DNA of 64,000 nt from Schlesneria sp. (GCA_043733345.1 JAYTGQ010000391.1:757-64756), one strand, 5' to 3'; positions 7,996 to 56,613 are shown, counted from the first letter of the stretch. The notes: generated by a model not told the origin, from the sequence alone. Translations and numbers: made by a program.

Positions 7996-8211
7996 ATGAT
8001 TCGTCTGAAGGGACTTTGGAAACTGTCGTCACTCCATCTGGAACAGCCGCTGTCGCTGCCCGAGGGAACCGAGGTCGTCGTCGAAATCCGGACGATCGAC
8101 GAAGCGACGGACGCCGAGTGGCGGGAGTTGGGCATGCAGCGTCTCGAAGCGGAATGGGACAATCCCGCCGATGCCGTCTACGACAACTGGAAAGAGTTGT
8201 ATGGCGTTTGA
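7996..8211 (+). CDS. Antitoxin-like protein (AF2212/DUF104-like)
   Basis: 71 aa, LHLEQPLSLPEGTEVVVEI motif, acidic C-terminus EWDNPADAVYD; overlaps the start of a PemK-like toxin. Confidence 0.7.
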   Translation: MIRLKGLWKLSSLHLEQPLSLPEGTEVVVEIRTIDEATDAEWRELGMQRLEAEWDNPADAVYDNWKELYGV

Positions 8212-8300
8212 ACCCGGTGATGTCGTCCTCGTGCCGTTTCCCTACCGCGATGCGGCCGCCGTGAAGACCCGCTCTGCGGTTGTGGTTGAGAGTTCTTCTT
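8201..8300 (+). pseudogene. PemK/MazF-like toxin, N-terminal fragment
   Basis: MAFEPGDVVLVPFPYRDAAAVKTRSAVVV matches the PemK N-terminus (GDVVLVPFP...KxRPAVVV); the reading frame then runs into REP DNA. Confidence 0.75.
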
Positions 8301-8501
8301 CAGCCCGGAGGGCGCCGGAGTGTAGCCCACGGCGCGAGCCGTGGGGACGGGTGCAACAGGCTCCAACAGCCCGGAGGGCGACACTTCGTTGAGACTGGCA
8401 CCCACGCGCGGAGAGTATCGCCCTCCGGGCTAAAACAGGCACTTGCTCACCCATCCCACGGCTCGCGCCGTGGGCTACCCTCTGACGCCCTCCGGGCTGA
8501 A
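8301..8501. repeat. REP doublet cluster
   Basis: AGCCCGGAGGGCG twice forward, CGCCCTCCGGGCT twice reverse; hairpins CCCACGGCGCGAGCCGTGGG and CCCACGGCTCGCGCCGTGGG arranged as one large inverted repeat. Confidence 0.8.
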
Positions 8502-8536
8502 GAGCAAACCATTTGCGAGAAACCGGGGTCACACCG

Positions 8537-9811
8537 TCACGCTGCAATGGACTCGGGCAACCCTCCCTGGCGGTGGCGGGTGGTCAGGAGGTGGATCGCG
8601 GCGGTCAGGCCGTGCAGGGCGTCGTCGATCTGAGCCGTTTGGTGCAGCACGCGGAGGTTGTCACTGAGGGACTGTTGCAACTCGGTCAGCTTTCCTTCGC
8701 CGTGCGAGATGGCTTGCAGCGTCCGGCCGATCTCCTTGAAGTCGTCTCGTAACAGACCGACGCCTTGGAGTGTCTTTTCGATGTGCGTCAAGTGGTGGCT
8801 TTGTCGAGTCTCGACCTGAGTCAGCATGTTGAGCAGTCGATTGTCGGTCTTGGTGTCGAGTGATTCGTGTCGCTGTTCGAGGACATTCAGCGCGGTGGTC
8901 CACGCGGCCGCTTCCTGTTTCTGGCGGTCGTCGAACCGTTGGAAGAGGCTCTCCATGCTTTGAGTCCAGACGGCGACTTGACGATCGAACGTCGTAGCCA
9001 TGATGCGCAGCGCGTCATCATTGGCCGATTGAACCATGTTCAGGAACGGCGTGAGATTGGCGTGTTTCACCTCGAAGCGATTGAGCAGTTCGCGTTCGAT
9101 GAAGCGGTCGATAAAGCCGTCGAAACTGTGTTCGATCCGTTCGCAGACAAACAACGCGAACATCATCGTCATGGCCGTGGCCAGCGCGACGGTGGTCGTG
9201 TTGAACGCTTCGCCCATCTCGGACACGACGACGGGCAGCCGATCGGCCATCTCATCAAACGAAATACCGCTGAGTGCCGTGCCGAAGTGAACGACCGTCC
9301 CGAGGAACCCGAGGACCGGGCTGATGGCGATGATGAATCGCACCAGCGAATAGCGGGCGTGAGTCGTGTCCTCGCCCCGGTTGGACAGGTAGTTCAGATG
9401 CTCGCGGTAGTCTTCGGCGGAACCGTTCTCAATCACGTAGCCCAGCGCCTGCGCGACGCGCTGTCCGATCTTCGATTCGATCAGCCAGAGCGGCTTGGCT
9501 TGAACTGTCTTCAGCAGCTCGTGCGCGTGAGCCACCGGTTCGCGGCCGTTCCTCGGCGGCAACCACGTCTCGCGCAGAGCCATGCTTTCACGCGGGAATG
9601 AAAACGTCTTCAGGACGATGTCGGCGATCCCCCAGAAGAACAGCGCCACGATGACGTAATCTACGGGATGCTCGGTGGCATAACGTGCCAACAGCGTGTC
9701 GTGAAACGACGGCTGAAGCACGATCCCGTAGAAGATCGTCGTGCTGGCCGCGCCGAGAATCAGCGACAAGTCCAGCGTCTTGAGAATGGTCGGTTTGAAT
9801 TTATTGAGCAT
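8537..9811 (-). CDS. MotA/TolQ/ExbB proton channel family protein with long C-terminal coiled coil
   Basis: SPVLGFLGTVVHFG and MGEAFNTT motifs of the ExbB/TolQ TM2-TM3 region; start set at MLNKFK. Confidence 0.82.
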   Translation of the reverse strand: MLNKFKPTILKTLDLSLILGAASTTIFYGIVLQPSFHDTLLARYATEHPVDYVIVALFFWGIADIVLKTFSFPRESMALRETWLPPRNGREPVAHAHELLKTVQAKPLWLIESKIGQRVAQALGYVIENGSAEDYREHLNYLSNRGEDTTHARYSLVRFIIAISPVLGFLGTVVHFGTALSGISFDEMADRLPVVVSEMGEAFNTTTVALATAMTMMFALFVCERIEHSFDGFIDRFIERELLNRFEVKHANLTPFLNMVQSANDDALRIMATTFDRQVAVWTQSMESLFQRFDDRQKQEAAAWTTALNVLEQRHESLDTKTDNRLLNMLTQVETRQSHHLTHIEKTLQGVGLLRDDFKEIGRTLQAISHGEGKLTELQQSLSDNLRVLHQTAQIDDALHGLTAAIHLLTTRHRQGGLPESIAA

Positions 9812-9855
9812 GGTTGTCTCGATTCGTGGTGGGACGGTGACTGGGAATTGTGAGG

Positions 9856-10030
9856 AGAGAGAAGTGACGAGAGACAAGAGCCAGAAAAAAGACGAGAGTG
9901 GAGAGACGAGCGTCGAGAGCCAGCAAAGAAGTCGATAGCGGAGAGTTGAAAGCCTGCGGCAGCATCTTCTCTGGCTCTAGACTCTCGTCTCTCCACTCTC
10001 GTCTTTTTTCTGGCTCTCAACTCTCCGCTC
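9856..10030. repeat. AG-rich inverted repeats (downstream flank of four-helix-bundle cassette)
   Basis: Perfect 33-bp IR 9878-9910 / 9984-10016; the outer arm ~9856-9886 is the inverse of ~10560-10592. Confidence 0.8.
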
Positions 10031-10411
10031 TTAACTCTCGACTTTTCCTGTTCCTCGTTCCAAATGTGCTTTGAGTCCACTGAGCATTCTCGCGACTTCA
10101 TCTGCTTGCTGATAAATCCGGTCAAAGGTCTGTTTGGGGATGAAATCACGGCGTAGAGCAATGAATTGTTGCGAGACAACTTCCATGAGCGACCCATAGG
10201 CGATCTCGACAAATCTCCCGAAATCTCGATCCGAGGCTCTGCCCGATCCTTCGGCGATATTGGAGGACACTGAGACGGCCGCCCGGCGCATTTGACTCGT
10301 GAGACCAAACCGTTCATCCGATGGAAAGTGACTCGTGGCGTCGTAAACAGCATCTGCAAACTCAACGGCGCGATGCCACACGTCCAGCTTCTCGAACCGA
10401 AATCCACTCAT
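10031..10411 (-). CDS. Four helix bundle protein (23S rRNA IVS / S23-like family)
   Basis: FEKLDVWHRA...FPSDERFGLTSQMRRAAVSVSSNIAEGSGR...FVEIAYGSLMEV signature. Confidence 0.92.
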   Translation of the reverse strand: MSGFRFEKLDVWHRAVEFADAVYDATSHFPSDERFGLTSQMRRAAVSVSSNIAEGSGRASDRDFGRFVEIAYGSLMEVVSQQFIALRRDFIPKQTFDRIYQQADEVARMLSGLKAHLERGTGKVES

Positions 10412-10603
10412 GGCAAGTGCCCTTTGCTAGCAGGAATCGAGCGAGAAGAGTGGAGCGTCATGAGTCAGAAACGAGAGGGCACGCATCCTCGCACAGTCTC
10501 GCTTTAATTCCCCAACTCCATCTCGGACTCTGGTCTCATTGAATTCCACTCCCGACCTCTTCTCTGGCTCTTGTCTCTAATCTCTCTTCTCTCGACCCTC
10601 CCC

Positions 10604-11767
10604 TTACTGACTGGCCGATTTCGTGCCGCTGGGTGAACCCGCGATGGGGACGCCGTTCGGAAGCGGACGGGCTGCGACGGGGAAACCTTGTTCGTGGGCG
10701 AAGGCTTGGAGTTTGCGATAGATCGGGAAGCTGTCGGGATAGACCCAGAAGGTCAGCGTCGTGTCGGGGTCTGCACCGAGCAGTGATTCGTAAAAACGGG
10801 AGCCTTGTGAGAGGGCGACTTGCTCGGACTCGCCCTTCAAATCCGGCTCAGGAACGACTTCCCAAGAAGAGACACTGACGCGGTAGCCCCCCTGCCCGGC
10901 ACGCAAGTCTTCGAGTCCACTCAACATTTCAACTCGCACGAGGTAGCTCATGTTGAACCCGGCGAACGGGCCGACCTGCCCCTGATGCGAGCGGGTGCGA
11001 GTCAGCCAGTCCTTGCGGCGTTCAATCTGGTCCTTCAGCTTCACAACCAAGACTTCGATCGGGACTTCGGCCACGCGGTTCTTGTCGAGCCGGTAATGCT
11101 TCTCTTTCCCGGAAACGGTGCGGCTGATGGGCGTGATGTGATGCTTCAACGCTTCGACCGGCGGCGTCTTTTCTTCCAGAGCCTTCACCTGTGCCAAGAG
11201 CCGCGCCAAGGTTTGTTTTGCCAACCGGAGGTCGGACAACTGTTCGGATGTTTGCTGTTTGGAAGCGTTCAGATCGAGCTGCCTCGTGGCGAGCAGATCA
11301 CGCGCGGTTTGGACTCGCTCGTTCAGTTCCGTCTGCTGTCGATGCTGGGCCGTCAATGTGTTGGCGAGATTCGCGTGGTCTCGTCGCAGGGCGGCAAGTT
11401 CGGCGTCGAGCTGCCGCGCCCGCTCGACCATCTCCTGTGGCGGAGCCAACTCGGGGAGTCGTAAAGGTTCGAGTTCCGGTTCCGGCTCCAGTTCGAGCAG
11501 TGGTGGCGTTAAGTCGGGTTCGATCGCGGCCAACTCGGGTGCGGTCGCTGCCTCCGGTGAAGCGACCTCAGCCAGAACCGGCGGTAAATCCAAGGGTGAA
11601 TCCAACGACGCGGCAACGCTCTCGGGCGCTGGGTTCGGTTTCAGCGGCGGGCGTGTGCGGACTCCCGCAATCACGATCAGGACGATCAAAATGCCGACGA
11701 CATTACAGATCACGTCCAAGAACGAACTGGAACTGAACTCTTCTTCTTCACGATGACGACGGCTCAT
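10604..11767 (-). CDS. ExbD/TolR-like single-TM protein with Pro-rich linker and coiled coil
   Basis: N-terminal SFLDVICNVVGILIVLIV with intramembrane Asp; coiled coil; C-terminal TLTFWVYPDSF domain; overlaps upstream gene by 4 bp. Confidence 0.65.
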   Translation of the reverse strand: MSRRHREEEEFSSSSFLDVICNVVGILIVLIVIAGVRTRPPLKPNPAPESVAASLDSPLDLPPVLAEVASPEAATAPELAAIEPDLTPPLLELEPEPELEPLRLPELAPPQEMVERARQLDAELAALRRDHANLANTLTAQHRQQTELNERVQTARDLLATRQLDLNASKQQTSEQLSDLRLAKQTLARLLAQVKALEEKTPPVEALKHHITPISRTVSGKEKHYRLDKNRVAEVPIEVLVVKLKDQIERRKDWLTRTRSHQGQVGPFAGFNMSYLVRVEMLSGLEDLRAGQGGYRVSVSSWEVVPEPDLKGESEQVALSQGSRFYESLLGADPDTTLTFWVYPDSFPIYRKLQAFAHEQGFPVAARPLPNGVPIAGSPSGTKSASQ

Positions 11768-13956
11768 GGTGCCCCTCCCCGTGAAACGCGCAAGGGCTTT
11801 GATGCGGGAGGAGTCGTGGCCGAACCGGTCGTGGCCGCAGTGCCGGTCTTGTCAGCGGTGTCCGGCGCGTACTCTTTCGACGTGGAGAGTCCTGACCGTT
11901 CGGTGAGCGCGCGGGCTTGCTCGTAGTTCGGGTTTCCGTCTTTGGCGACGACGAATCGCAGGCTGGGCTTCCAGAAGAAACCTTGCGGCGGCTGCCCCCA
12001 GTCGCGCGCTTGCAGGTCGAGGACCGTCACCAGTCGCTCCAGCGTTTCCTGCTTGGACTCGCCGTCGCCCATGTGGATGGCGTGCTTGCCGCCCACGACG
12101 AGCCGCTTCGATTCCACGTCGATGCGCACTTCGCGTTCGAGGCCGATGGCGGCGTCAGCGGCCGAAAGTCCCCACCGTTTGTGCGAGAGCATTTCGGGTT
12201 CAATTGGCTTGTTGAGAGCAGACTTCTTCGAGCGGCGGTCGATCACGGGGACCGCCATTGGTCCCGTCGAACCCAGTCCAATGTCTAGGGGTGCTTCGCC
12301 GCGATCAGCTCCGACAGCAGCACCGGTCGCGGAGTCGGCGTCGCTCTCCTCCGCGAGCCGTTCGATGCCGGAGTCGCCGGGCGGGGGCGAGTTGCCAGAT
12401 GCTTCTTTGCCGGACGCTTGGCGATTTGGTTCGGACGCACCCCGTCGTCCCACATTGCCGTCGCCCGAAACAGACCGCCGAACACCCGAATCAGAACCGT
12501 TTGCAGCAGACTCATACTCATCTCCTTCTGTAATGCGTTGCCCGGGAGCCAGCCCGTTCATTCCCTTGGCAACGGACTGTGGACCGCCCTGTCCTGTTGA
12601 ACGCGGATTCCTGCCCGCGAAATTCTCGATCCGTTCCCAACTGCGTGACCCGACATCGTGGTCGTCGCCAGTCACGTCGGTGAGTTCAAAGCGATTTGTC
12701 GAAGCACTACGAACGGTGGCTTCACCCGGACCTCCGGCGCTTCCGGTGGCTCCCGATCCGCCCTGACTCACCGACCCACCGGTGCCGCGCGATCCATTGC
12801 GGAAAGCATCGCTGCCGGAGCCGCCGCCTCGCAGAAAACTGCCCACACCAGATCGCTTCGACGCGAACTCCTTGATCTGCGCCCGCTCGGCAAGCAGACG
12901 TTTGATAGCCGCTTCACACGCGGCTTTGGCGGCGAGATCGACCGGTGGTTGTTGAAGCTGTGTGTCCTCTTCGATCAATTCGTAACCGTGCGGTTGCTGG
13001 AGTGTCGCCAACATTTTGATGGCGATGTAGTACGCGACCGTGCCACTCGGGCGAACGAGCATCAGCACGTAAGGCTCGGGTTGGCGGGCCGGTTGAGGTT
13101 GCTTGAGGTTCCACGCGGTCCAGTAACTGACGAGCGCGTTCGATCCCGCCAACAACGGGTTGACGCGCGCCGTGAAGCCTTCGAGATCGTCCGGTCGAAT
13201 CACGATGTCTTCGGGAAGAAACCGCAGTCCGTCCGCCGTGCATTCAATCAGGATCGGACGCCGCGACGTTCCCGACTGCGCATCGAACGGGACCACCATG
13301 AACTTGCTCTCGCCCCCGGCGGCGGTGGCCTGCGCCGCCTTGAGCCGCCTTTGAACTGCGGCAATCTGTTGTTCGATCGCCTGGCGTTCCTGCGAGGTCG
13401 AATCGCCTCCAGTCGAATTCAAAAGCTCGCGAGTCAGCCCGCCGAGCTTCGCCTCCAGTCCCTGCGCTTCGTCTTGCAACGTGGCAACCTGCCGTGCAGC
13501 GACTTCCTTTAAGCGGCGGCGTTGTTCGAGTGACTTCGCGTGTTGATCGCGTGCTTGAGTGAGTGCGCCCGTTTTCTGATGCCACTCCGCCAACAACTCA
13601 TGGAGTTCCTGTTCGCGCTGAGCCAGTGCGGCCGCACGTTCGGCGAGCACTCTGTCGCGCGGATTGATCGCCGGTTCGGAAGATTCGAGGGCGAGCGGCT
13701 CCGGTTCTGCTTCAGGCTGCGCGGGAATCATGATCGAAGTGACTGACGGTGGCGCGGCCAATCGTGGAGGCTCAACAGACATGCGCGGAGGAGGAGGATT
13801 CTTCAGTTCTGCGAGAACCTGCGCGAGCGAATCTTTGCGGAGCTGCCGTGTTGTGACCACCATCAACATCAGGATCAGCGCGCCCATCGTGCAAATGAGG
13901 ATGTCCAGAAAGGCAAACAGATTGACCGACGGCGAACTCTGGGATCTGTGACGCAT
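11764..13956 (-). CDS. Large ExbD/TolR-like single-TM protein with coiled coil and low-complexity insert
   Basis: N-terminal NLFAFLDILICTMGALILMLMVV (ExbD-like Asp), coiled coil, PYVLMLVRPSG domain, Gly/Ser-rich insert, second small C-terminal domain. Confidence 0.65.
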   Translation of the reverse strand: MRHRSQSSPSVNLFAFLDILICTMGALILMLMVVTTRQLRKDSLAQVLAELKNPPPPRMSVEPPRLAAPPSVTSIMIPAQPEAEPEPLALESSEPAINPRDRVLAERAAALAQREQELHELLAEWHQKTGALTQARDQHAKSLEQRRRLKEVAARQVATLQDEAQGLEAKLGGLTRELLNSTGGDSTSQERQAIEQQIAAVQRRLKAAQATAAGGESKFMVVPFDAQSGTSRRPILIECTADGLRFLPEDIVIRPDDLEGFTARVNPLLAGSNALVSYWTAWNLKQPQPARQPEPYVLMLVRPSGTVAYYIAIKMLATLQQPHGYELIEEDTQLQQPPVDLAAKAACEAAIKRLLAERAQIKEFASKRSGVGSFLRGGGSGSDAFRNGSRGTGGSVSQGGSGATGSAGGPGEATVRSASTNRFELTDVTGDDHDVGSRSWERIENFAGRNPRSTGQGGPQSVAKGMNGLAPGQRITEGDEYESAANGSDSGVRRSVSGDGNVGRRGASEPNRQASGKEASGNSPPPGDSGIERLAEESDADSATGAAVGADRGEAPLDIGLGSTGPMAVPVIDRRSKKSALNKPIEPEMLSHKRWGLSAADAAIGLEREVRIDVESKRLVVGGKHAIHMGDGESKQETLERLVTVLDLQARDWGQPPQGFFWKPSLRFVVAKDGNPNYEQARALTERSGLSTSKEYAPDTADKTGTAATTGSATTPPASKPLRVSRGGAP

Positions 13957-26053: not shown

Positions 26054-26230
26054 CACGACCGTCCTTACCCGACGTTTCCCCCGAATCCCATGGGGAAAGG
26101 CGGAGAACGACGCCCACAAAATCAAAAGTGTGCAACTTCAAAACGCGCGAGCGAGGGCTGGGCATTCGATGACCCCGAATCGCGCGCGTCGGGCGAGTAC
26201 CTTGTCATGACTCGGTTTGGGAGTTGGTAG

Positions 26231-26323
26231 TTACGCTTCCAAGAACTGTCGGTCTTGGAGGCGGCAGCCGGTCTGGATCGCCTTGTGGAATTCTTCGATC
26301 AGCCAGCGGCGCTCGTAGTACTC
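26231..26323 (-). pseudogene. IS4-family transposase fragment (YREK motif)
   Basis: YYERRWLIEEFHKAIQTGCRLQDRQF matches the Y-x2-R-x3-E signature of IS4/IS50 transposases; only ~30 codons present, starting at a REP end. Confidence 0.75.
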
Positions 26324-26447
26324 GACGGGACCGCTTGTCGGCGGAGCGACAGGGCTACCGCAAAAGCAGGTGCGTTCCGAAGTCTCCACGTACCCGACGT
26401 GTGCCAGGACTCTCAAGAACTCTCGGACAGAGCGGATGCACAGCCCC
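26324..26447. repeat. REP arm plus orphan right end of MITE family M2
   Basis: GACGGGACCGCTTGTCGGCGGAGCGAC...GTGCGTTCCGAAGTCTCCACG as at ~33832-33910; AACTCTCGGA-N9-TGCACAGCCCC as at 56840-56869. Confidence 0.7.
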
Positions 26448-26474
26448 TTGGAGATGGACTGTCGTCGGGGTGAT

Positions 26475-26589
26475 ATACCGCGCACGGATGAGGATGGCAC
26501 ATTTCACACTAACCCGAAGCGTAAGCGAGAACGTGTGTTGCATCCTCGCTTACGCTTCGGGTTAGTGTCAGCGTGTACCGCGTGAGGTA
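26475..26589. mobile_element. MITE family M5 carrying a REP hairpin
   Basis: ATACCGC...GAGGATGGCACATTTCACACTAACCCGAAGCGTAAGCGAG...CCTCGCTTACGCTTCGGGTTAGTGTCAGC is near-identical to 61321-61436. Confidence 0.7.
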
Positions 26590-33125: not shown

Positions 33126-33323
33126 GGTCAGTTTGCTCCTCTGAAAAGATCGCGGAGTGGCCCAGCTTGCTTCAAGCTAGTTGCCGCAGGCACAAGAAAC
33201 TCAGGATCGGGCTGGAATTGGATACGGTCGCGTCTTCTCAATCAACGTCGGTCAGAGATTTCTTGTACTGTCCCCACCCAGCTTGAAGAAAGTTGGCTCA
33301 CCCAGGCAAGGAACCGACTCTTC

Positions 33324-33778
33324 TCACGACCGGACGGCCTGTCGCCAGTCGTCTTGGCGGAGGTCGTTGTTGCGGTAGAGTTCGATCAGGCGTTCGAGCA
33401 GGGTGATGTCGCAGCGGAACTGGTCGCCTCGTTCGGTGTCGGCCATGCGGCGCGGGCGGTCCCATTCGCGGACGGCGGTGATGCTGGGGACGATGTCCAC
33501 GCCGTCTCGCACCGCCGCGTCGACCGACTCGAAGTGATGATGCTTGGCGAGGACCGTGCGGACCGCTTCGAGGACCAGCGTGAAGCCGTGGTCGCCGTAG
33601 GCTTCGGAAAACGCTCCGTCGATGGTGATTGCCTTGCCGCTGCGCTTGATCGGCGATTCGCCCGCTTCGATCTTCACCGGGACGTGGCCGTTGACGATCA
33701 GGCCGCGGGCGGGATCGACTCCGAACTCGGCGAATACCTTTTTGCAGAACCACGGTTCGTGGATCAGCGCGAAGGCCG
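33324..33778 (-). pseudogene. fbp: Class 3 fructose-1,6-bisphosphatase, C-terminal fragment
   Basis: IVNGHVPVKIEAGESPIKRSGKAITIDGAFSEAY matches the class 3 FBPase INGHVPV...GESP...IDGGF motif; most of the gene is absent and the fragment starts at a REP arm. Confidence 0.8.
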
Positions 33779-34320
33779 TCGGGTGCGTGGAGTCTTCGGA
33801 ACGCACCGTGACTGTCGTCCCGTCGTTCCGCCGACGGGACCGCTTGTCGGCGGAGCGACAAGGCGACCGTAACAGCCGGTGCGTTCCGAAGTCTCCACGC
33901 ACCCGACGTGTGTCATCACCCCCAAAACTCTCGGACGTAGTAAATGCACCGCCCCTGAGTTTTTGTTATACCTCGCGCGGTCAGTGATGATACCTCTGAG
34001 GCGTCAGCCCAATGGCACTCACTTTGTCACCTCGCTTGTGAGCGGCACGGCGCTAGCTGCCGGCTTTTGCAGGGGAAATCGACACCACGACACCGGTGGC
34101 TAGCGCCATTCCGCTCAAAGTGAGTGCCATTGGGCGTCAGCCCCCCGGTTCTTGGGCGTCAGCCCGCTGTGGAAGAACCAGGGAGCTGACGCCCAATGGC
34201 ACTTACTTTACTAACCCGCAGCGTGAGCGAGGGCGATGACATGAGGCGTTTCCCCTTGTTTCCCTGCCTACGCTGCGGGTTACTGAGGTAAAGCAAGTGC
34301 CATTGGGCTGACGCCGCCCC
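33779..34320. repeat. Dense REP/MITE cluster (several families)
   Basis: GTGCGTTCCGAAG doublet (~33790-33910), M2 right end (33927-33955), CCCAATGGCACTCACTTT doublet (~34004-34140), CCCGCAGCGTGAGCGAGG hairpin (~34211-34283). Confidence 0.8.
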
Positions 34321-34356
34321 GCTCGGAAACCTCTCACTTTGTGCCGCGTGAGGGAT

Positions 34357-34532
34357 AGTTCTTGGCCATTGAAGGTTTGGTCAAGGATTGCGGGGAGCAT
34401 GACCTCAAGCTCGCATCTGAGATCATTACGGACAACCTGAGAAGCGGAAAGCCTCTCTCGGAGCTCGGCCACATGTGACAGCATTAGCTGCTTGTCATCT
34501 CGCGAGGGAATGATGACGGGAAACGGGTTCAT
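34357..34532 (-). pseudogene. Probable type I restriction S-subunit C-terminal remnant
   Basis: PVIIP...VAELRERL...ELEVMLPAILDQTFNGQEL resembles the HsdS C-terminal spacer (ELDALLPSILDRAFxGEL); low-GC-looking context. Confidence 0.5.
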
Positions 34533-34793
34533 CGGACTCAGATGACGCCAACCCTAACCGGATGACTTGTTCGACTTATAGCCAGACAGTTGCGGCCTGA
34601 AACAGGAAACAACACGAACGAGATTGTCACTTTTTTCAAAATAGTAGGAACAACCTCCTCGCTATTCTCAATTGGTGCTTGTAGCATACTGCCGTGGATG
34701 GTCGGTGAGCGTTGAGATCACAAGCTTCGACATTATTCGGATGACAAGATAAGTAGCAGCCCCGAGTTTACTCAGGGAGGCTAATTAGAAGGT

Positions 34794-34850
34794 AAGCCGA
34801 CTCAGCAGAAAACCTCAAAGGTACTCTGCTGAGTCGGCTTTTTTGTTTTG
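34794..34850 (+). terminator. Strong intrinsic terminator with no adjacent plus-strand CDS
   Basis: 16-bp perfect stem AAGCCGACTCAGCAGA / TCTGCTGAGTCGGCTT followed by TTTTGTTTTG. Confidence 0.7.
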
Positions 34851-35100
34851 TCAGTAGATTCGGACGACTACATAAAGAGCAGCCCGGCCCACTCCGGGAG
34901 GCTCGTTAATGGGTAGGCCGACGCGGTGGAACATCTCAGGGTGTTCTGCGGCGTCGGCCTTTTTCGTTTCGTCACTTCCCCCAGTGGCGAGCGGTCACCG
35001 GTGGATTGTCCGCTTGGTGTGTCTTGAACCTTTAAGGATGGAGATGATCACGATGAATCGCTTAATGACAGTTGTTTGTGGCTTGCGGTCCAGTGGAGCA

Positions 35101-35916
35101 ATGACTCGGTATCGCCTGAATTTCAAGCGGGCTTCGAGCCTGCTGGCGATCGCCAGCGCCATGGCTATTACGTCGGCATTCGCACGGGAACCCGCCGTGC
35201 CGGAAGCCAAGCCGATCAACAAGGGGCAGGCGGTACGTGTCCAAGGGCAGCCAGAGCCAGCCGCAACGGAGACGAGATCAGTCAACAGAGGCCCGGCAAC
35301 TCAAGCCCATTCCGAGTCCGCCGTGATTCCCGAATGTCTGGAAAAGCTGAACCTCTCGGCTCAGCAGCAAGATCAAGTCAAGGGGATCGTTCACAATTAC
35401 GACGGCTCGCTCCGCGTCGTCTGGACGCAATTTAGCGACCGCTACATGCAGGCGATCTGCATGGAGACCGCGTTGATGGCTGCCATTGAGGACAACCTGA
35501 CCGAAGCGCAACGGCAGCAAGTGCGCAATCAGCGTCGCGTGACTGCTCAGCATGAGAAGGCCATGGCGGCAACGAGTACCAAGGTGAATCAGGCAAAGGT
35601 CAAGCCGAATGAGGAAACCACCAAGCCTGTCGATGCTGCCGAGGAAGGGATTGCTGCTGCTGGCATATCGCTCACCGACGAGCAGGAAACTGCGGCCGAC
35701 AGGGTTCAAGAAAAGTATCGCTCTCAACTGCGGTCACTGAACCGTGACATTCAAGGTCTCCATACTCGGTTGGTTTCACTGGAAGCCGACAAACTGACGG
35801 AGATCGAAAAGGTTCTCACGAAGGATCAGCTTTCGCAGCTGCGTATAAACCGACAGAACGCTCCTGTCGCACCAAAAGTGGCGAGCAGCCAAGCCGAGCC
35901 GACGAAGGCCGAGTAA
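35101..35916 (+). CDS. Secreted Spy/CpxP-like helical protein
   Basis: Signal peptide (LLAIASAMAITSAFA); LNLSAQQQDQV, NLTEAQRQQV and VLTKDQLSQL LTxxQ-type repeats; GGAG RBS before ATG. Confidence 0.7.
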   Translation: MTRYRLNFKRASSLLAIASAMAITSAFAREPAVPEAKPINKGQAVRVQGQPEPAATETRSVNRGPATQAHSESAVIPECLEKLNLSAQQQDQVKGIVHNYDGSLRVVWTQFSDRYMQAICMETALMAAIEDNLTEAQRQQVRNQRRVTAQHEKAMAATSTKVNQAKVKPNEETTKPVDAAEEGIAAAGISLTDEQETAADRVQEKYRSQLRSLNRDIQGLHTRLVSLEADKLTEIEKVLTKDQLSQLRINRQNAPVAPKVASSQAEPTKAE

Positions 35917-45277: not shown

Positions 45278-45278
45278 G

Positions 45279-50944: not shown

Positions 50945-51085
50945 GGGGCCGCAATCGCTTCCTAATTTTCAGTGACGTAATCTGGACCCCTTGGTCCGGA
51001 CGAAATGCTCGACAATAACGACGACTGCGAAGGGAAACGTCCGGATCAAGGGATCCAGACTACGAGTGGAAAATGATTGCGGCCA
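50945..51085. repeat. Nested double-stem element, copy 2
   Basis: GGCCGCAATCGCTTCC / GGAAAATGATTGCGGCC outer stem; inner stem 50978-51062 with G-C/G.U exchanges relative to copy 1. Confidence 0.75.
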
Positions 51086-51148
51086 CGAAGTCTTACCTCT
51101 GACAAGTCCAATGTCTGAGACAAGGATTGGTTGACTCCAAGGACAGGC

Positions 51149-51373
51149 ATGGGTGACTTGCCTCCCAAAATATCCCGCAGTGCCCAAGGCAACATCGTGC
51201 AGATCGAGCAGGAGTTCGCACGGCAGCGTTCCAAGGTGGACCGCCTGGGTGAAACGATCAGCCGTTGCGCCGGAAGCCTTGGCTTTGCGATCACTCACAT
51301 TTGTAGTGTTGTCGGTTGGCTGACGATCAATGCGGAACTGACCACACTTCGTCCGTTCGCCCCCTATTCATTT
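51149..51373 (+). pseudogene. DUF1003 membrane protein truncated by IS insertion
   Basis: IEQE...RQRSKVDRLGETISRCAGS...H...W..IN...PFAPYSF (family PFDPYPF) ends at the IS end GGGTGTAACC. Confidence 0.75.
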
Positions 51374-51940
51374 GGGTGTAACCGGCGTTCCGGGATGTGG
51401 TTTTGAGATGGCGGTGGGTGTGAGTGGCCAGTGGATGGATTGAAAGTGGATGGATTGCCGTTGAAGAGTGGTTGGGTGGAGGCGTTGGGTTTCGTGTTGG
51501 ATGCGGAAGTCTTGGAAAGTTTCCCAATCGCCGTTGGCTCGGATGGCGCGCAGGGTGAGCATGGCTTGGGTGCCGGGGATTTTCCAACGCATGCCGCTGC
51601 GTTCCATGCGGTCGCAGTGTTTCATTCTGTGTTTGGCCAGATGGCGGCAGGCGCCTTCGATCACGCCGGTGGCGAGGTATTCGTCGTACTGCAGGCGGTG
51701 CAGGTTGGATTCCAGGAACCCGGTCAGCGTGCGGAGCTTGACCTTGGCCGAGCAGGTGAGTCCGCGCTGCGTGCCCTGGCTGCGCAGATCGGCGATGACC
51801 GACTTGGCCTGTCCTTGCAAGCCGCGCAGCAGGCGGCGTCTGACGAACGCGATCGCTGCGGGGCTGGCTTCCTTGTGGAACAGATGCGCCGCGTCGGGGA
51901 TGGGAGACTCGGGAAGGACAGCCGCTTCGGCGAGCATCTC
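51374..51940 (-). mobile_element. Degenerate ISKra4/ISLre2-type (IS256 superfamily) transposase 3' part
   Basis: YDEYL..TGVIEGACRHL...DRMERSGMRW...QAMLTLRAIRANGDW; internal deletion and duplication; N-terminal half absent; element end ...GTTACACCC. Confidence 0.8.
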
Positions 51941-52008
51941 CTTCGGTGCGCCCAGCGCGTCGTGACGGTTCACCGGACTGGGCCTGACACGGGTTCGATG
52001 GCCATGAA

Positions 52009-52128
52009 GACGTTTCCGACAGAAGTCGATTCCCACGCCGGTCGTAGCTGAATTCGCAAGAATTCAGACTCAAATGAACGAGCGTCTGAACTCTTGCGAG
52101 TTCAACTACGACTTTTGTCGGAAACGTC
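52009..52128. mobile_element. MITE family M4 (120 bp)
   Basis: TIRs GACGTTTCCGACAGAAGTCG / CGACTTTTGTCGGAAACGTC; same family as 6181-6471 and 57083-57100. Confidence 0.75.
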
Positions 52129-52230
52129 AATGAACTCGTAGAGATGGTCCCGCTCAAGCTGAGAGCGCAGTGTGTGGTACAGACGCTCCGCGATCACAAC
52201 CGCCTCTTGATCTTCGCCCAGCTTCACCAT
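52102..52230 (-). pseudogene. Truncated second DUF5678-like ORF (42 aa)
   Basis: MVKLGEDQEAVVIAERLYHTLRSQLERDHLYEF parallels IAKRAKELYEACWRAELERDPLPEF of the upstream gene, then runs into the M4 TIR. Confidence 0.55.
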
Positions 52231-52673
52231 GAGTCGCCTCCGTGGCTTTCGCCATTGGTTCGCACTCTTGCGGACGCGATCTGTTCAATCTGCATTCCGA
52301 CCATCTTGATCGCACAGTCATGGCCGATGCGCAGCGTGAATGTCACCCGATCAGGATGGGCATGTCTCGCCGAGCGAATGGCGTCACGAAAACTCTTGCC
52401 GAGGAAATACGTTGCTAACTCCGGTTCCATCGCGGCGAACTCAGGCAGAGGATCTCGTTCCAACTCGGCCCGCCAGCAGGCTTCGTAGAGTTCTTTGGCC
52501 CTCTTGGCGATCTCGCGAGAATCGGCTCGGTCAACCTTGATCGCTCCAACCTTGTTCTCGAAGACATCCGACAACCGTGCTGGCTGGGCGCGCCTTGCGC
52601 CCGCAGGTATCAGCCTCAGCGTCCAAGCCGCGAATTGGGCCGCACGGGCTACGATTTGGTGGCGCAACGGCAA
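52224..52673 (-). CDS. DUF5678-like small protein (true start probably ~52535)
   Basis: EIAKRAKELYE...LERDPLPEFAAMEPELATYFLGKSFRDAIRSARHAHPDRVTFTLRIG. Confidence 0.55.
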   Translation of the reverse strand: MPLRHQIVARAAQFAAWTLRLIPAGARRAQPARLSDVFENKVGAIKVDRADSREIAKRAKELYEACWRAELERDPLPEFAAMEPELATYFLGKSFRDAIRSARHAHPDRVTFTLRIGHDCAIKMVGMQIEQIASARVRTNGESHGGDSW

Positions 52674-53698
52674 AGTGGATGGCCGCCCGGTTTACCAACC
52701 AGTCGATCAACTCCGCTTTCGTGGTCCTTCAGCCGATGAATCGTGACCGCGTCCGGCCGGATTTCGGCGATCACCGTACCAGCACATGCGAGGTTCCGAG
52801 GTTTGCCACTCGTGGTGACATCGCGACGGCGTAGCGAACGGCAAGGCTCATCGGGCGTTCGCACACCAGGCCGAAGTGATTCGACATCATCCGAACACTG
52901 CTTCGTGACCTGCGTGCATAAAACTTGGAACTGCTGCTGGACGAGTTTTTCAATGACTCGTTGTCGGGGATGTCCATCGCCATTGCTTGTCCCAACGGAG
53001 ACCACGGCAAACTTCGGTCGTAAAGCTGACTCGTACAGGAAGGCGAGATCAGCGGCTTCGGATTTGTCTGAATCAGCGACTTTGCCACCGTGATGAGGAA
53101 CAGCACATACATCACATGAAATGGGCGCTCCACCATTTCGGAGATTGACTTGTCTCCACTGTTTGACCGTCGAGTCTCCCGGAAAAACGATGCGTCGTTC
53201 ACCACAATCCAGAGACAGGATTCCACTCGTCGCGTTCGGTTTTCGTCCAGCCTGTGCCGACCAGTTCTCGATGAGAGTTGGCGAATACAAGCGAAGGCGA
53301 ATGCCCGTGGTGCCATCGGCGAACAACTCACGAACCGTGCCATCGCATTCCAAGCGAACTGGTGGCGCGGATAATCTCTTTGACCGTAGCTCCGACTCGA
53401 TCAAGGAATACAACGGCGACTCACCGATGGGGCGATCTTGAAGGACGTAAAGTTGATCGATCGCATTGGGATATGCGGAAAGGACACCTGTGGCACCGCC
53501 CAAATGGTCTGAGTCATTATGGGAGATGACAAGGGCGACGATCCGATCGACGTACCGTTTGAGCAGTTTTAGCGGCACGAACGAGCCGGCCTTGGGGCCG
53601 CAATCGATGACGATCGCACGCCGGTTCCCCAACAAGACAACCTGTGATGTCCCTTGTCCAACGTCGAGGAAAAAGCATTCGCTGACCGGTGGAAGCAT
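52649..53698 (-). CDS. Stand-alone ComEC/Rec2-type metallo-beta-lactamase fold hydrolase (putative nuclease) with Cys-rich tail
   Basis: FLDVGQG, VIDCG, ISHNDSDHLGG, NATS, FPGD, VPHHGG, SVG...GHP motifs; no ComEC membrane channel; six Cys in the last ~95 aa. Confidence 0.88.
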   Translation of the reverse strand: MLPPVSECFFLDVGQGTSQVVLLGNRRAIVIDCGPKAGSFVPLKLLKRYVDRIVALVISHNDSDHLGGATGVLSAYPNAIDQLYVLQDRPIGESPLYSLIESELRSKRLSAPPVRLECDGTVRELFADGTTGIRLRLYSPTLIENWSAQAGRKPNATSGILSLDCGERRIVFPGDSTVKQWRQVNLRNGGAPISCDVCAVPHHGGKVADSDKSEAADLAFLYESALRPKFAVVSVGTSNGDGHPRQRVIEKLVQQQFQVLCTQVTKQCSDDVESLRPGVRTPDEPCRSLRRRDVTTSGKPRNLACAGTVIAEIRPDAVTIHRLKDHESGVDRLVGKPGGHPLCRCATKS

Positions 53699-53701
53699 TG
53701 G

Positions 53702-54415
53702 CTAGTCCCAGGTTGCCTCGGGAAGACTGCTCGTTGTCGCCCAGCCATCAAACGCACTTTGAATCTGACTCTCAGACAGTCGGTCGAATTGGGGAAGACG
53801 TTGAACGGTTCGGATCTTCAATAACCGCCCGGTTTCCTTATCGAGATCGGCAAATGCCTCGAACCACTGCCCCGGCTGGAACCCGGCCATTTCGGGAGGC
53901 ACGTTCTCAGGAGACCACGTTTCGGTGGCTCCAGAGACCCACCGAATCTTCTGATGACGATTCCGCATGTCGATGGCTTGACCAATGCGGCGAACGGTCA
54001 ATGGTCGGGCGTTCTCGTAAACGTCCACGTCGATCACCGACTTGAGGACATCCCATTTCAGACGATCGCCCTCATTCATCTCGAACAGCCGCTGGCCAAA
54101 CAGTTGTTGGAAGGCAATGTGGACTTGGTTAGACCAATCCTGCATTGCCGCCGAGAGTGTTGGTCCGCGCCCGACGAAACAGTTGCCCGTTGCATCAACG
54201 ACAAATTCACCATCACGGAATTGGGCACATCGCGGTGGAAGAAAACGCCCCGTTGCGCTTTCGCGAAACGGGTACGTCGCTTCACCGACAGTGACTTCTC
54301 GGATTGTCCGCTGAAGCACGCTGTAATCGGTCTGGAATTGTCGCCATTCCTGAACGGACGGCGTGAATTCATTGTCTATCGTCGGCCGCACGTATGCGGG
54401 CGGAGCAAGCAGCAT
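53702..54415 (-). CDS. Hypothetical protein with possible HicB-like central domain
   Basis: 237 aa between two recognisable genes (13 and 3 bp gaps); EFVVDATGNCFVGRGPTLSAAMQDW resembles the HicB beta-beta-beta-alpha GxTxxEA motif. Confidence 0.75.
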   Translation of the reverse strand: MLLAPPAYVRPTIDNEFTPSVQEWRQFQTDYSVLQRTIREVTVGEATYPFRESATGRFLPPRCAQFRDGEFVVDATGNCFVGRGPTLSAAMQDWSNQVHIAFQQLFGQRLFEMNEGDRLKWDVLKSVIDVDVYENARPLTVRRIGQAIDMRNRHQKIRWVSGATETWSPENVPPEMAGFQPGQWFEAFADLDKETGRLLKIRTVQRLPQFDRLSESQIQSAFDGWATTSSLPEATWD

Positions 54416-54427
54416 GATTTATTTCCT

Positions 54428-55225
54428 CTATTCAACATTTGGCTCGAACAACGTCCACCCAGCGGGAGTAAAACAGGCATTGAAGCAGGTAAACAGGTTG
54501 GTGTGTGCTTCATTCAAGCGAAGGACTATTGTCTCCGCACCACTGTTTTCAATCTCTTGACAGTCTGAGTGCCATTCCAAGCGAAACCGATACGGCTCGT
54601 GGTTGGGAGCATCGGAACGTCCGCCAAGTTCGCTTCCAAAATGCATACTGACTCGATCTCTCGGGTCTCCTCCTCGAAACGCTAGCCGGATCGCGAACTT
54701 TTCAACGGGTTCAAATGGAGCCCCCGGCAGTTGAGGATGGACTCGGAAGTAATCTTCGACTCGGAGTTGCCCGTTTGTTGCAACAGGCACCTCTACGAGA
54801 TCAACATAATGCAGCCCTGCCTGCTGAACCTCTCGCCGACCAAACTGGTCGTTGTGCCGATCTAGGAAGCTAAACGCAGCGTCACGCAACGACGTGAATC
54901 CGGGATAATCTGCTTCGCGTCTCGTAAATCCAAACCGCAAAACATTTCTGCCGACTTCAAGCCACCTTCGTCCGTTGCCGTCACGAATTCGAACTCGTTC
55001 AACCGTTGTTTGACCACGAATTTCTTTGGGGACTCCCGTCGAAGATCGGCTCACGATCTGAATCGTGTCGGTTTGGACAAACTCAAACTCGGGGTCAACG
55101 AACTCGGATACCAAATTCTCCAGAAAACTAAGCGCAACCTTGTGATCCCAACTCGTCGAATCACCATCACCGAATGAAAAGCCAATCCACGCTTCCGTGA
55201 TTGGTGGCCGTTTCAACTCTCCCAT
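54428..55225 (-). CDS. TIGR04255-family protein
   Basis: N-terminal LKRPPITEAWIGFSF, central YPGF and GLHYVD, C-terminal LNEAHTNLFTCFNACFT pattern; GAGG RBS before ATG. Confidence 0.8.
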   Translation of the reverse strand: MGELKRPPITEAWIGFSFGDGDSTSWDHKVALSFLENLVSEFVDPEFEFVQTDTIQIVSRSSTGVPKEIRGQTTVERVRIRDGNGRRWLEVGRNVLRFGFTRREADYPGFTSLRDAAFSFLDRHNDQFGRREVQQAGLHYVDLVEVPVATNGQLRVEDYFRVHPQLPGAPFEPVEKFAIRLAFRGGDPRDRVSMHFGSELGGRSDAPNHEPYRFRLEWHSDCQEIENSGAETIVLRLNEAHTNLFTCFNACFTPAGWTLFEPNVE

Positions 55226-55286
55226 TTTCGTCCTCAACAGTCTGAATGCAGTTCCGAGAGACTATTTGTCGGCTGTTTCCAGAATT

Positions 55287-55345
55287 CTACCCTACCGAAA
55301 TCTGTACAAGTTCGCCGCGTTTCTCTTGAAGCTCGCCGGGTGCCA
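55287..55345 (-). pseudogene. Duplicate of thiC extreme 3' end
   Basis: Encodes ELQEKRGELVQISVG*, paralleling QLQEKRGDLVELTVP* at 56279-56330; 22 bp identical (55312-55333 = 56304-56325). Confidence 0.6.
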
Positions 55346-55671
55346 CGGGCGGCAGCTCGGGGCCGCCCGTGTTTAGCTCAGTCAGCATCGCCCATTCTCG
55401 GTCACTCCGCCAGCGTTTCCACGGGTTGAAATCGCAGGCGCGCTGGCAGGAGAGGGTGAGATCGACCAAGGTGCTGAGGCCGGGTTCGACTTTCCCATTC
55501 GACTGTGGGGAGCGGCTCGGTGGCCGACCAGTCCCGACTGCGGAAGCGTCGGCGGCCGGGCGGGGTAGCATGCGCACCGCTGCCCCCGAATCCTGTCGTG
55601 CCATGCCGCCCGAGTCGGCTTGAGCCGAATCTCCATTTGTCACCCCAGCCAAGCTGTTCCGCGACCGTTGC

Positions 55672-55896
55672 TCAACTGTGGTTCTGAAGTGCGAGCAGAT
55701 CCCTCGCCTTCTGAATGCCGAGGTACTCGTCGATCTCGCCGCGCAGGTGTTCGATCACGTCCATCGGGCCTTCCAACCGCAAGGCCAACTGCGACGGGTG
55801 CATCGTCTCCGCCTGTCGCAGCAAGTCGGCGACGAACTCTTCCATGTTTCGCAATTGTTGCCGGGCCTGAGTCAGCGCGGCGGCGTCTTCGATCAT
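55672..55896 (-). CDS. Small helical protein, putative partner/antitoxin of DUF6932-like NTase
   Basis: 74 aa, ATGA-coupled to the upstream NTase; IEHLRGEIDEYLG C-terminal helix. Confidence 0.7.
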   Translation of the reverse strand: MIEDAAALTQARQQLRNMEEFVADLLRQAETMHPSQLALRLEGPMDVIEHLRGEIDEYLGIQKARDLLALQNHS

Positions 55897-56185
55897 GGTC
55901 GCACCCTGACAAGCCCCTTGGTCCGTTGAGGCTGATTGCGGACCTGACTGAAAAAATCCACGAACCGATCCTATTCCAGAGAGTGTGGCATCACCACGAA
56001 CAAGTCCAAGCCGAATGTGCGCTGGATGCGCCTCCGCGACCGCAGGTTGTACTCGAATGGCGAAACACTTTGGCTCACATCGTAACCGTCAGGCAGCACC
56101 AGGACGACATCCATGTCATTCGGCTCCGGCTCATCGGTCACGAAGCTGCCATCCACCAGGACGGCTTGCGCCAACGGCCAGCAAC
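55893..56185 (-). pseudogene. DUF6932-like minimal nucleotidyltransferase, 5'-truncated with internal amber
   Basis: VLVDGSFVTDEPEPNDMDVV (GS-DxD Pol-beta NTase motif); in-frame TAG at 55971-55973, then DRFVDFFSQVR...KGLVRVRP*. Confidence 0.75.
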
Positions 56186-56278
56186 ATGGACCGGGTGACT
56201 CCACAATGGATCGCGAGGATGAGTTCCCTTGAACAAAGCTCCGGCTTGGGAACGAGACTCCACGCACCCTACTTGCTG

Positions 56279-56610
56279 TTACGGCACAGTCAACTCGACT
56301 AAGTCGCCGCGTTTCTCTTGAAGCTGCCGGGCCGTTTCGGGGTCGACGTAATCGCTGTGGCAGGAGGCTTTGGCTTCTGCTTCGGCGGTCATCGTCTTCT
56401 TGGTCTTGGTCTTGGCGGCGAGGCGGTGGATTTCGTCGGGGCTGAAGACGCCGCGTTTGCTCAGGATGTCTTGCTGTTCGGGGGTGAGAGCGGCGGAGAC
56501 TTTGGCCTTTTCCCATTGGTAGTTCTCGTCCTTGCCCGAGGTGAATTCGACGATCTCCTTGCTGATGCGGACGCTGCACCAGTCGTGGCCGCACATGGCG
56601 CAGATGTCGG
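56279..56610 (-). pseudogene. thiC: Phosphomethylpyrimidine synthase C-terminal fragment
   Basis: CAMCGHDWCSVRISKEI = ThiC CX2CX4C [4Fe-4S] motif; no N-terminal body; begins next to a MITE TIR. Confidence 0.8.
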
Positions 56611-56613
56611 TTC

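Follow-up and report, generated by a model that had tools for sequence, protein, structure and literature searches.

Gene fragments and their junctions with repeats

The window analysed here is a stretch of 64,000 nt on contig C391 of a Schlesneria sp. MAG, a planctomycete genome of 7.45 Mb. It contains seven gene pieces that the original prediction had read as one recurring pattern of foreign fragments cut at or next to REP or MITE ends. The repeats exist, as do most of the fragments, but the seven junctions are not all of one type, and only four of them, those of the PemK toxin, IS4 transposase, fbp and thiC genes, are true truncations against a repeat. The repeat is complete at the PemK and fbp junctions, and is itself truncated at the thiC and IS4 junctions.

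A probable N-terminal relic of a PemK/MazF toxin (8201–8290, plus strand), approximately 30 of approximately 110 aa in length, overlaps in the ATGA manner, at 8201–8211, the antitoxin-like small gene that is its apparent partner (7996–8211, plus strand; weak AF2212-like match), and the two are conserved together in G015:C714. The match to PemK_toxin (positions 2–32 of 109, E = 0.045) scores 14 bits, under the cut-off because just 30 aa remain, and is extended by the G015 ortholog, which runs on to approximately aa 68 and supports the N-terminal relic. As predicted, the fragment ends at a REP: homology stops at most 8 bp ahead of a complete REPIN-like element of family F (8297–8503; 207 bp, termini TCTTCAGCCCGGAGGGCG), which has about 55–60 full copies and a cognate RAYT-like gene on contig C632. 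The ends of family F are reached by 74 and 110 copies, with unique flanks in each case, and no target duplications were seen at family F copies. The orthologous PemK gene in G015 is cut at another residue, by another REP family.

The second truncated gene is plausibly the C-terminal YREK region of an IS4-family transposase (26224–26325, minus strand; DDE_Tnp_1 positions 155–180 of 200, E = 0.02), a 91 bp piece of which is multi-copy in relatives and loses homology at 26325. It abuts a repeat at 26323–26325, as had been claimed, but only the right half of this family G REPIN is present, with an attached module (26323–26449); the segment 26323–26416 matches 33832–33925 at 88%, position 26323 corresponding to 33832, and the left arm is missing.

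The 3′ relic of fbp (class 3 FBPase; 33307–33774, minus strand) spans the final 150 codons and a further 17 bp (FBPase_2 positions 501–639 of 639, E = 4e-38). Full-length donors, which the original prediction proposed to seek, were found for both fbp (94% identity) and thiC (92%); the intact fbp lies on a separate contig (C550:19139–21148), and C550:19122–19589 matches the relic at 93.8% nucleotide and 97% amino acid identity. The predicted cut at a REP arm end proved exact, the relic stopping 2 bp short of position 33777, where a complete family G REPIN with two 32 nt CGTC-tagged arms begins (33777–33908). This is the natural end of the REPIN, because other copies share no flanking sequence past CGTCGGG. 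Past the REPIN follows a cluster of nested REP and MITE copies (families B, A and others; 33909–34361, depth 100–400), and on its 3′ side the relic abuts a family I repeat (33148–33310, depth up to 46). The reading frame of the relic is open, and its private changes (four nonsynonymous and eight synonymous, against none and nine in the intact copy) suggest that selection acted on it for the greater part of its divergence and that the cut is recent. The relic is equidistant (94–96%) from the fbp genes of G000, G001, G002 and G009, most of the differences being synonymous. It derives from a second allele, functional until recently and diverged to the degree of a sister species’ gene. One remaining oddity concerns G015 and G017, two further species in which decayed fragments of fbp break at the same base (within 1 bp), at loci that are not syntenic with the window; a fragment in G008 has a different break.

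The 3′ relic of thiC (56281–56611, minus strand) retains 110 codons in an open frame, including the CX2CX4C motif, and shares 91.8% identity with the 3′ end of the intact gene (C708:13942–14266). The predicted fragment is thus real, and its junction (56611/56612) with a composite H/B-type MITE (56612–57101; inner insertion at 56637–56868, right terminus intact at 57101) is sharp. However, the supposed ‘M3 TIR’ sits within a larger MITE as one of its modules, since seven of the ten other copies have approximately 42 bp before it, ending in TGACGTTTCCGACAGAAGT. This real terminus is absent at the thiC junction, and the MITE is therefore truncated there too, with the left approximately 42 bp missing. 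The relic keeps its ancestral downstream neighbours (3.9 kb at 88% in G017; also in G001, G006 and G008), C708 retains the ancestral upstream side, and the two parts overlap by 331 bp. The new downstream flank on C708 opens with a repeat 27 bp past the thiC stop codon. The thiC gene is a split ancestral locus whose relic still sits in its ancestral neighbourhood, so that the label ‘foreign’ is just half right, given also the formerly functional allele behind the fbp relic. Beyond the thiC relic the DNA encodes genes of the usual chromosomal kind, DUF1501 and PBP/YHYH among them, and downstream of thiC there is toxin-antitoxin or defence-like cargo that differs by species. A second short thiC-like tail occurs at 55287–55345.

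The other three junctions have different histories. M4, a 120 bp H-type MITE (52009–52128) with 21 nt TIRs (GACGTTTCCGACAGAAGTCG), does lie in the DUF5678-like small gene (51983–52230, minus strand), but the gene does not end in its TIR. M4 is a simple insertion with a 7 bp target duplication (TTCATTG/TTCATGG, that is, TTCAT(T/G)G); the site is empty in G008, and alignment with G008:C145 has the gene running on at both sides and resuming past M4 at 51983–52001. The split gene was then cut at approximately 51983 by a C-terminal relic of an ISKra4-family transposase (51368–51982, minus strand; NF033572 positions 299–422 of 422, E = 8e-22), a relic with copies at many contig ends. The DUF6932 fragment (55971–56260, minus strand; DUF6932 positions 53–112 of 142, E = 2e-11), listed as starting near a REP, is instead an in situ pseudogene that no REP has cut: it carries a clean 143 bp internal deletion at 56185, away from repeats, and the G017:C353 ortholog is intact. 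Lastly, a weak, possible HsdS C-terminal remnant (34365–34532, minus strand) matched two PDB entries only, both HsdS C-termini (E about 1), and nothing in Pfam, NCBIfam or PADLOC. It does end near REPs, but these stand at its natural 3′ end, and the actual 5′ break, near 34532, is not at a repeat.

Repeat load and breakpoints across the genome

The host genome is saturated with RAYT-associated REP and REPIN families and small TIR MITEs. Repeats present in at least ten copies make up about 8.6% of the genome, and account for approximately 25% of intergenic DNA versus 2% of coding DNA; palindromic families reach 100–480 hits genome-wide, mostly extragenic. REPs occur as the inverted pairs that characterize REPINs, for example at 33777–33908 and 8297–8503 (arms 97 and 94% complementary, respectively), and carry the tag GTAG in family E and CGTC in family G. 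RAYT genes, which the original prediction suggested looking for, are present in number: the genome has 18 Y1_Tnp matches, and several of its RAYT-like Y1 transposase genes, of which there are at least 15, have their own REPs on both sides. Cognate REPs in inverted orientation accompany the genes on C632 (family F), C742 (family E) and C754 (family C), and other Y1 transposase genes have high-copy repeats on either side. REP families are widely shared among Planctomycetota, and synteny between species breaks off repeatedly at REP clusters. A further break, on C982, has a complete GTAG-type hairpin 6 bp away.

The association of breaks with repeats was assessed on 34 gene fragments with a donor in the same genome, a repeat being defined by at least ten copies. 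Breaks proved enriched at repeats, with 11 of the 34 lying 20 bp or less from such a repeat versus 6% expected (binomial p = 2.8e-6), where the null is the share of low-copy intergenic positions near a repeat and gene calls come from a home-made caller. As about two thirds of the fragment breaks lie away from high-copy repeats, repeats are at most one contributor. Fragments from the 3′ end outnumber those from the 5′ end by 18 to 8, an imbalance that needs selection or another mechanism, and 3′ relics that stop at the donor’s stop codon are in surplus across the genome.

Competing explanations for the truncations

Active capture of host gene pieces by MITEs or RAYT-driven elements, which the original prediction had proposed alongside deletion, is in keeping with fragments that adjoin element sequences and with the many Y1 HUH transposase genes. 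In plants, Pack-MITEs and Helitrons capture genes, and there too gene pieces adjoin element ends, but none of the pieces described here is enclosed by the two ends of a single element, they have not been multiplied, and cargo-bearing copies are absent. No fragment has a second copy other than its donor, none of the 34 has flanking inverted repeats above the 99th percentile of controls, all 65 paired H-type MITEs are shorter than 400 bp and free of cargo, and fbp and thiC each have repeats of different families on their two sides. Capture is largely refuted by these observations, and we regard it as highly improbable. Little more credit can be given to chimeric assembly at repeats or co-binning of related strains, even though the MAG is fragmented (1007 contigs, N50 11.5 kb), many contigs terminate in repeats and the bin holds over 100 short segment pairs of 85–97% identity. 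The longest exact matches elsewhere of junction-adjacent repeats are 21–51 bp, compared with contig-end overlaps of 98–99 bp, and nothing crosses a junction by more than 13–18 bp; the relics differ by 6–8% from the intact copies, fbp fragments with the same break recur in independent assemblies, the thiC neighbourhood is present in G017 and estimated contamination is 1.35%. Chance adjacency, whereby pseudogene pieces in repeat-rich intergenic DNA touch repeats without a causal link, could draw on the repeat share of intergenic DNA and on the three of seven cited cases that are not truncations at repeats. It is already disfavoured by the enrichment test, and the base-exact abutment at fbp (on both sides), PemK, IS4 and thiC makes it a poor candidate.

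Two further explanations address fbp and thiC in particular, and we consider each of them unlikely, if less so than the foregoing. Phage 21 and e14 integrate at icd in Escherichia coli and supply a surrogate 3′ end, and site-specific integration of this kind at the 3′ ends of fbp and thiC would keep the gene intact and displace the native 3′ end, which would persist as a relic on the far side of the insert. The resemblance lies in a relic of a few hundred base pairs alongside an intact gene copy, with homology to the intact gene stopping 2–17 bp past the stop codon in both 3′-terminal relics; the overlap of the split thiC parts, the shared fbp break in the differing contexts of G015 and G017, the surplus of stop-codon relics, the species-variable cargo downstream of thiC and the second thiC-like tail all point the same way. 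However, no integrase or recombinase adjoins either relic among the genes scanned in the window, the chromosomal genes beyond the thiC relic are not island-like, the 3′ ends of intact fbp and thiC do not look foreign against their orthologs, and the G008 fbp fragment is broken elsewhere. Orthologous loci likewise lose homology at gene borders, and a boundary at the stop codon is therefore not diagnostic. Import from a related species by homology-facilitated illegitimate recombination, with shared REPs as anchor, has a comparably small probability. Here an incoming piece, for instance a REP with the 3′ end of the gene next to it, would recombine with a REP of the host at one side and be joined illegitimately at the other. 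Import would accommodate the spread of REP families across Planctomycetota, the collinearity of the fbp relic and its family I repeat with intact fbp and the DNA that follows it in G002:C559 (91% over 625 bp), the separate functional lineage suggested by the relic’s distances to its homologues, and the G015 and G017 fragments, which are nearer to the G000-clade fbp than to their own gene. Against import, the thiC relic looks resident, since over 4 kb of its ancestral surroundings adjoin it without a break, no donor genome matching both flanks was found, and scans of metagenomes and genomes for the junctions came back empty.

Proposed decay of gene copies in a repeat-saturated genome

The repeats themselves have close parallels. 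The genome resembles REPIN/RAYT systems (Bertels & Rainey 2011, PMC3116915; PMC3337134) in that its extragenic palindromes are of high copy number and stand in inverted pairs, that Y1 transposase genes have their own REPs around them and that no target duplications were seen at family F copies; GTAG- and CGTC-tagged REPs are also described (PMC3733652). The planctomycete host differs in having many families and at least 15 RAYT-like genes in one genome; moreover, truncation or capture of genes is not known for REPINs, whose link to breaks here is statistical. M4, a short TIR element inside a gene with a target duplication, resembles other bacterial MITEs, although the repeat density of this genome is unusually high. 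REPs are known IS targets, tied to recombination and truncated genes (review PMC3184786, citing Tobes & Pareja 2006 and Ogier 2010), and like such plasticity zones the window has IS4 and ISKra4 relics in or beside repeats and truncated genes clustered with them. REP/BIME recombination and IS rearrangements without target duplications (PMC3184786; PMC11708052) similarly have dispersed short repeats as rearrangement end points. In contrast, the junctions described here yielded no hybrid repeat, and neither a reciprocal recombination product nor a ‘before’ state was found for the four truncations. The repeat itself is cut at two of them, where illegitimate joining fits better than homologous exchange. 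In Salmonella, REPs were reportedly the join-points of tandem duplications (Shyamala et al. 1990).

On balance, we lean, with moderate confidence, towards regarding the cited junctions as a mixture of ordinary decay products (insertion, deletion and rearrangement) rather than the outcome of one process, with cutting back at repeats the most likely origin of the true truncations. Deletion of neighbouring DNA by the elements, one part of the original prediction, agrees with the four truncations and with the enrichment across the genome, and deletion is indicated where gene and repeat are both truncated, as at thiC and IS4. The shared fbp break in G015 and G017 is not predicted by random deletion and counts against this preferred explanation.

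We propose that, at the four true truncations, redundant or dispensable gene copies were trimmed by deletions or rearrangements whose end points lay at or within palindromic repeats. This could occur by insertion of an element followed by ectopic recombination among dispersed copies, or by breakage at hairpin-forming repeats and illegitimate repair, with REP-targeting IS elements contributing further debris. Both fbp and thiC would have been cut recently, from formerly functional genes, and their pieces may owe their survival entirely to an intact second copy elsewhere. Under this model, the elements that saturate the genome would neither pick up nor carry host DNA.

Repeat load and REP/REPIN families

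The window (C391:757–64756) belongs to a 7.45 Mb assembly of approximately 60 % G+C (1007 contigs, N50 11.5 kb), and contains a DUF1501 gene, which indicates Planctomycetota, as does a REP 23-mer present in many MAGs of that phylum (see below). Looking up one window gene by exact protein match gave no hit. In an all-against-all comparison, repeats with at least 10 copies accounted for 8.6 % of the genome and, according to a rough home-made gene call, for approximately 25 % of intergenic versus 2 % of coding DNA. About 15 repeat patches, with genome-wide depths of up to 480, were found in the window. They fall into several separate families of palindromes, namely A (CTAACCCGAAGCGTAAGCGAGG), B (GTGCCATTGGGCG), C (CGTGGGCAACGCC), D (GGAGGGCGAGGCT), E (GTAGGGTGGGAC), F (AGCCCGGAGGGCG) and G (CGTCGGGTGCGTGGAG), alongside an H-type MITE with the TIR GACGTTTCCGACAGAAGT.

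The original prediction had suggested looking for REP-associated Y1 transposase (RAYT) genes, and the search was positive. There were 18 Y1_Tnp matches genome-wide, the majority exceeding the Pfam cut-off, and at least 15 RAYT-like genes in this one genome (on contigs C632, C649, C230, C835, C742, C762, C754 and others). Several have their own flanking REPs in the classic RAYT layout, with one high-copy family on both sides in inverted orientation; the gene on C632 is paired with family F, that on C742 with family E and that on C754 with family C. This bracketing by inverted copies of a single family indicates that the window repeats are genuine REP/REPIN systems.

A family-A 23-mer (ACTAACCCGAAGCGTRAGCGAGG), present in the window at 26505–26568, 61351–61414 and 62865–62928 and represented in the collected loci L046–L125, has exact copies in more than 100 contigs of Isosphaeraceae, Gemmataceae, Schlesneria, Planctomycetaceae, Pirellulaceae and other MAGs, an unusual breadth for REPs, which are normally lineage-specific. 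An approximately 105 bp element without an Rfam match (34859–34969), upstream of the gene at 34909–35916, is tandemly duplicated (34760–34850 and 34860–34960) and is matched at about 80 % across many genomes of the genus, frequently more than once per genome. No tRNA genes or Rfam families were found in the window, which consequently has no att site of the tRNA type.

Gene relics at the repeat junctions

Seven junctions between gene fragments and REP or MITE repeats had been cited in the window. Four proved to be true truncations against repeats, and in two of these the repeat had been cut too.

The fbp relic matches positions 501–639 of the 639 in FBPase_2 (window 33324–33775, minus strand; E=4e-38). 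Window 33307–33774 shares 93.8 % identity with the 3′ end of the intact 669-codon fbp gene (C550:19139–21148), and the homology ends sharply on both sides. The left edge abuts a repeat (33148–33310), and on the right the homology stops 2 bp short of a complete family-G REPIN (33777–33908), which bears out the claim that the fragment starts at the end of a REP arm. As other family-G copies have unrelated flanks past CGTCGGG, position 33777 is a natural element end.

Synteny was uninformative for fbp, because homology between species ends at gene borders everywhere; the relic and its downstream repeat are collinear with the fbp locus of the relative G002. By codon-position counts, the relic branch has four nonsynonymous and eight synonymous private changes, versus none and nine on the branch of the intact copy, and the two share 97 % protein versus 94 % nucleotide identity. 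These values indicate that the relic derives from a second fbp lineage, diverged about as far as a sister species, that was functional for most of this divergence. The fbp relic was cut recently, and the open frame is kept in both the fbp and the thiC relics.

Of 33 genomes from the genus, only four carry additional fbp pieces: the genome under study (G000), G008, and G015 and G017, two other species belonging to the other subclade. The G015 and G017 pieces are decayed 3′ fragments (locus L014, G015:C668, 4051–5253; locus L015, G017:C1452, 3594–4462), each with a small membrane-protein gene inserted mid-fragment. They are mutually orthologous, adjoin genes located on contig C240 in G000, and are nearer to the fbp of the G000 clade than to the gene of their own species. 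They break at most 1 bp from the break in the window, but their flanks are unrelated to it and the loci are non-syntenic; the G008 fragment breaks at a different position. The shared break fits a single ancient event with later movement or gene conversion, and it also fits transfer of a segment bearing the fragment, or a site-specific process.

The thiC fragment was said to start beside a MITE TIR. The fragment is real, with window 56281–56611 matching the 3′ end of intact thiC (C708:13940–15823) at 91.8 % identity, but no element terminus adjoins it: the module on its right, TCGGACTCTTGAGATTGCAGCT, is preceded in seven of ten other copies by approximately 42 bp ending in the H-type terminus. 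These are missing at the junction, so that gene and MITE are both truncated there. In the relatives G001, G006 and G008, intact thiC is followed by homologues of window genes at 52.1–52.6 kb or 55.4–55.6 kb, and G017:C353 aligns with window 52283–56185 at 88 % and continues to the thiC tail. Contig C708 has thiC and its upstream side in common with G001 and G006, and shares nothing downstream of the stop codon. It ceases to resemble the relatives' thiC loci at a mid-copy palindromic repeat (C708:13650–13915, depth 30–100) that starts 27 bp past the stop of the intact gene. The ancestral thiC locus has therefore been split, with the downstream neighbours and 331 bp of thiC in the window, and the whole gene and its upstream side on C708.

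The relic shares 87 nt around the CX2CX4C motif (56518–56604) without a single change, even at synonymous sites, with the intact copy and with three other species, whereas the rest of thiC differs by 5–10 %. The last 21 aa of an ORF at 55287–55652 (minus strand) resemble the ThiC C-terminus, forming a second short thiC-like tail (55287–55345); homologues of window 55383–55570 are found twice in G017 and, in G006, downstream of thiC. In G017 (locus L029, C353), the DUF6932 gene and the thiC stop are separated by a 2.9 kb insert (6820–9697) that holds one DUF4058 and two PIN-domain genes.

At the IS4 junction, a 30 aa tail of the YREK region (a weak DDE_Tnp_1 match) abuts, at 26323–26325, the right half alone of a family-G REPIN; the expected truncation at the REP base is thus present, and the REPIN is halved as well. 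PemK was likewise correctly described as ending at a REP, its homology to the G015:C714 orthologue being lost at most 8 bp before a complete 207 bp family-F REPIN; that orthologue is itself cut, near residue 68, by a REP of another family. Between the GNAT and MotA/ExbB genes lies a locally variable spot (7209–8519), with different DNA (1.3–1.7 kb) in G000, G008, G006 and G015.

The remaining three junctions differ. M4 does adjoin the DUF5678-like gene, but alignment with G008:C145 revealed a simple insertion of this 120 bp MITE (52009–52128) with the target duplication TTCAT(T/G)G, rather than an end of the gene, which resumes for 19 bp beyond M4 and then meets a transposase relic of the ISKra4 family. 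Many contigs of G000 and G015 (C260, C97, C182, C856) end in copies of this ISKra4-family element (51368–51982), which probably causes many assembly breaks. The hsdS-like piece matched just two PDB entries at E~1, both HsdS C-termini; the REPs sit at its would-be natural 3′ end and its actual 5′ truncation is away from any repeat, contrary to a cut at a REP. Neither the hsdS nor the DUF5678 call found support in Pfam, NCBIfam or PADLOC. DUF6932 is not cut by a REP either: its start region is retained, and relative to the intact G017 orthologue it has lost 143 bp in a clean internal deletion at 56185.

Break enrichment and the origin of the relics

For a genome-wide survey, as the original prediction had proposed, we took low-copy segments of at least 150 bp that were internal to contigs and had a counterpart with at least 85 % identity, and kept those of which one member, the donor, was part of a far longer ORF with a good score. 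The yield was 34 fragments with an in-genome donor (18 3′-terminal, eight 5′-terminal and eight internal). Breaks lay within 20 bp of a repeat with at least 10 copies in 11 cases, against an expected 6 % of low-copy intergenic positions (binomial p=2.8e-6); in a further case, at a break on C982, a perfect 30 nt GTAG-type hairpin lies 6 bp away. The association of breaks with repeats is real yet partial, as two thirds of breaks are elsewhere.

The proposal that the elements capture adjacent DNA (transduplication) was not supported. Each fragment had its donor as sole second copy, in none of the 34 did flanking inverted repeats exceed the 99th percentile of the control, and all 65 paired H-type MITEs in a size survey were shorter than 400 bp. 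For fbp and for thiC, the repeat families on the two sides differ.

Chimeric assembly at repeats is likewise not supported, and three observations count against it. Contig ends overlap by 98–99 bp, but exact matches of the junction-adjacent repeats elsewhere reach only 21–51 bp, and no exact match elsewhere crosses a junction beyond 13–18 bp; the relics are 6–8 % divergent from the intact genes; and the same fbp break and thiC neighbourhood are present in other assemblies. A scan of genome-contig and metagenome-contig collections, which may lack the window's own records, found no fbp/REP or thiC/MITE junctions. End overlaps did not link C391, the contig of the window, to C708 or C550, since the contig ends are multi-copy repeats.

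The evidence best supports a heterogeneous decay associated with repeats. MITEs and REPINs would insert into dispensable genes, IS elements would land in REPs, a known insertion preference (PMC3184786), and deletions or rearrangements would have end points at or inside palindromes, arising through ectopic recombination between repeat copies or through breakage and illegitimate repair at hairpins. The thiC and IS4 junctions, where both partners are cut, point to illegitimate deletion, and the fbp and PemK junctions, with a complete element, fit insertion and then loss of one side. The observed pattern is borne out in part, and the suggestion that the elements delete adjacent DNA is supported in part, by the four truncations and the enrichment.

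Two other processes are kept alive by the 3′ bias of the fragments and by the shared fbp break, and both seem to us quite improbable: integration at specific sites, with surrogate 3′ ends, and import of relatives' DNA anchored on REPs. The former predicts foreign-looking 3′ ends of intact genes, and no discontinuity was seen. Also unlikely is a model where, in this lineage, hairpin-forming REP/REPIN ends are preferred points of breakage or joining, yielding a standing population of 3′ relics via REP-anchored uptake of relatives' DNA or a site-specific process; the site-specific variant is suggested by the recurrence of the window's fbp break in G015 and G017 at non-syntenic loci.

Implications for Planctomycetota genomes

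Repeat-driven plasticity of the kind favoured here, repeat-associated decay, is already known, and this genome represents a new instance with one unexplained detail, the shared fbp break. It is a clear case of a very high REP/REPIN and MITE load shaping gene decay and synteny loss in Planctomycetota, where such systems are little described. A gene fragment beside a repeat is not, alone, evidence of capture, and telling insertion, deletion and rearrangement apart requires comparison with relatives and a repeat-family consensus. Should a site-specific or REP-anchored process underlie the shared fbp breakpoint, this would be a testable way for short repeats to promote the exchange or loss of gene ends.
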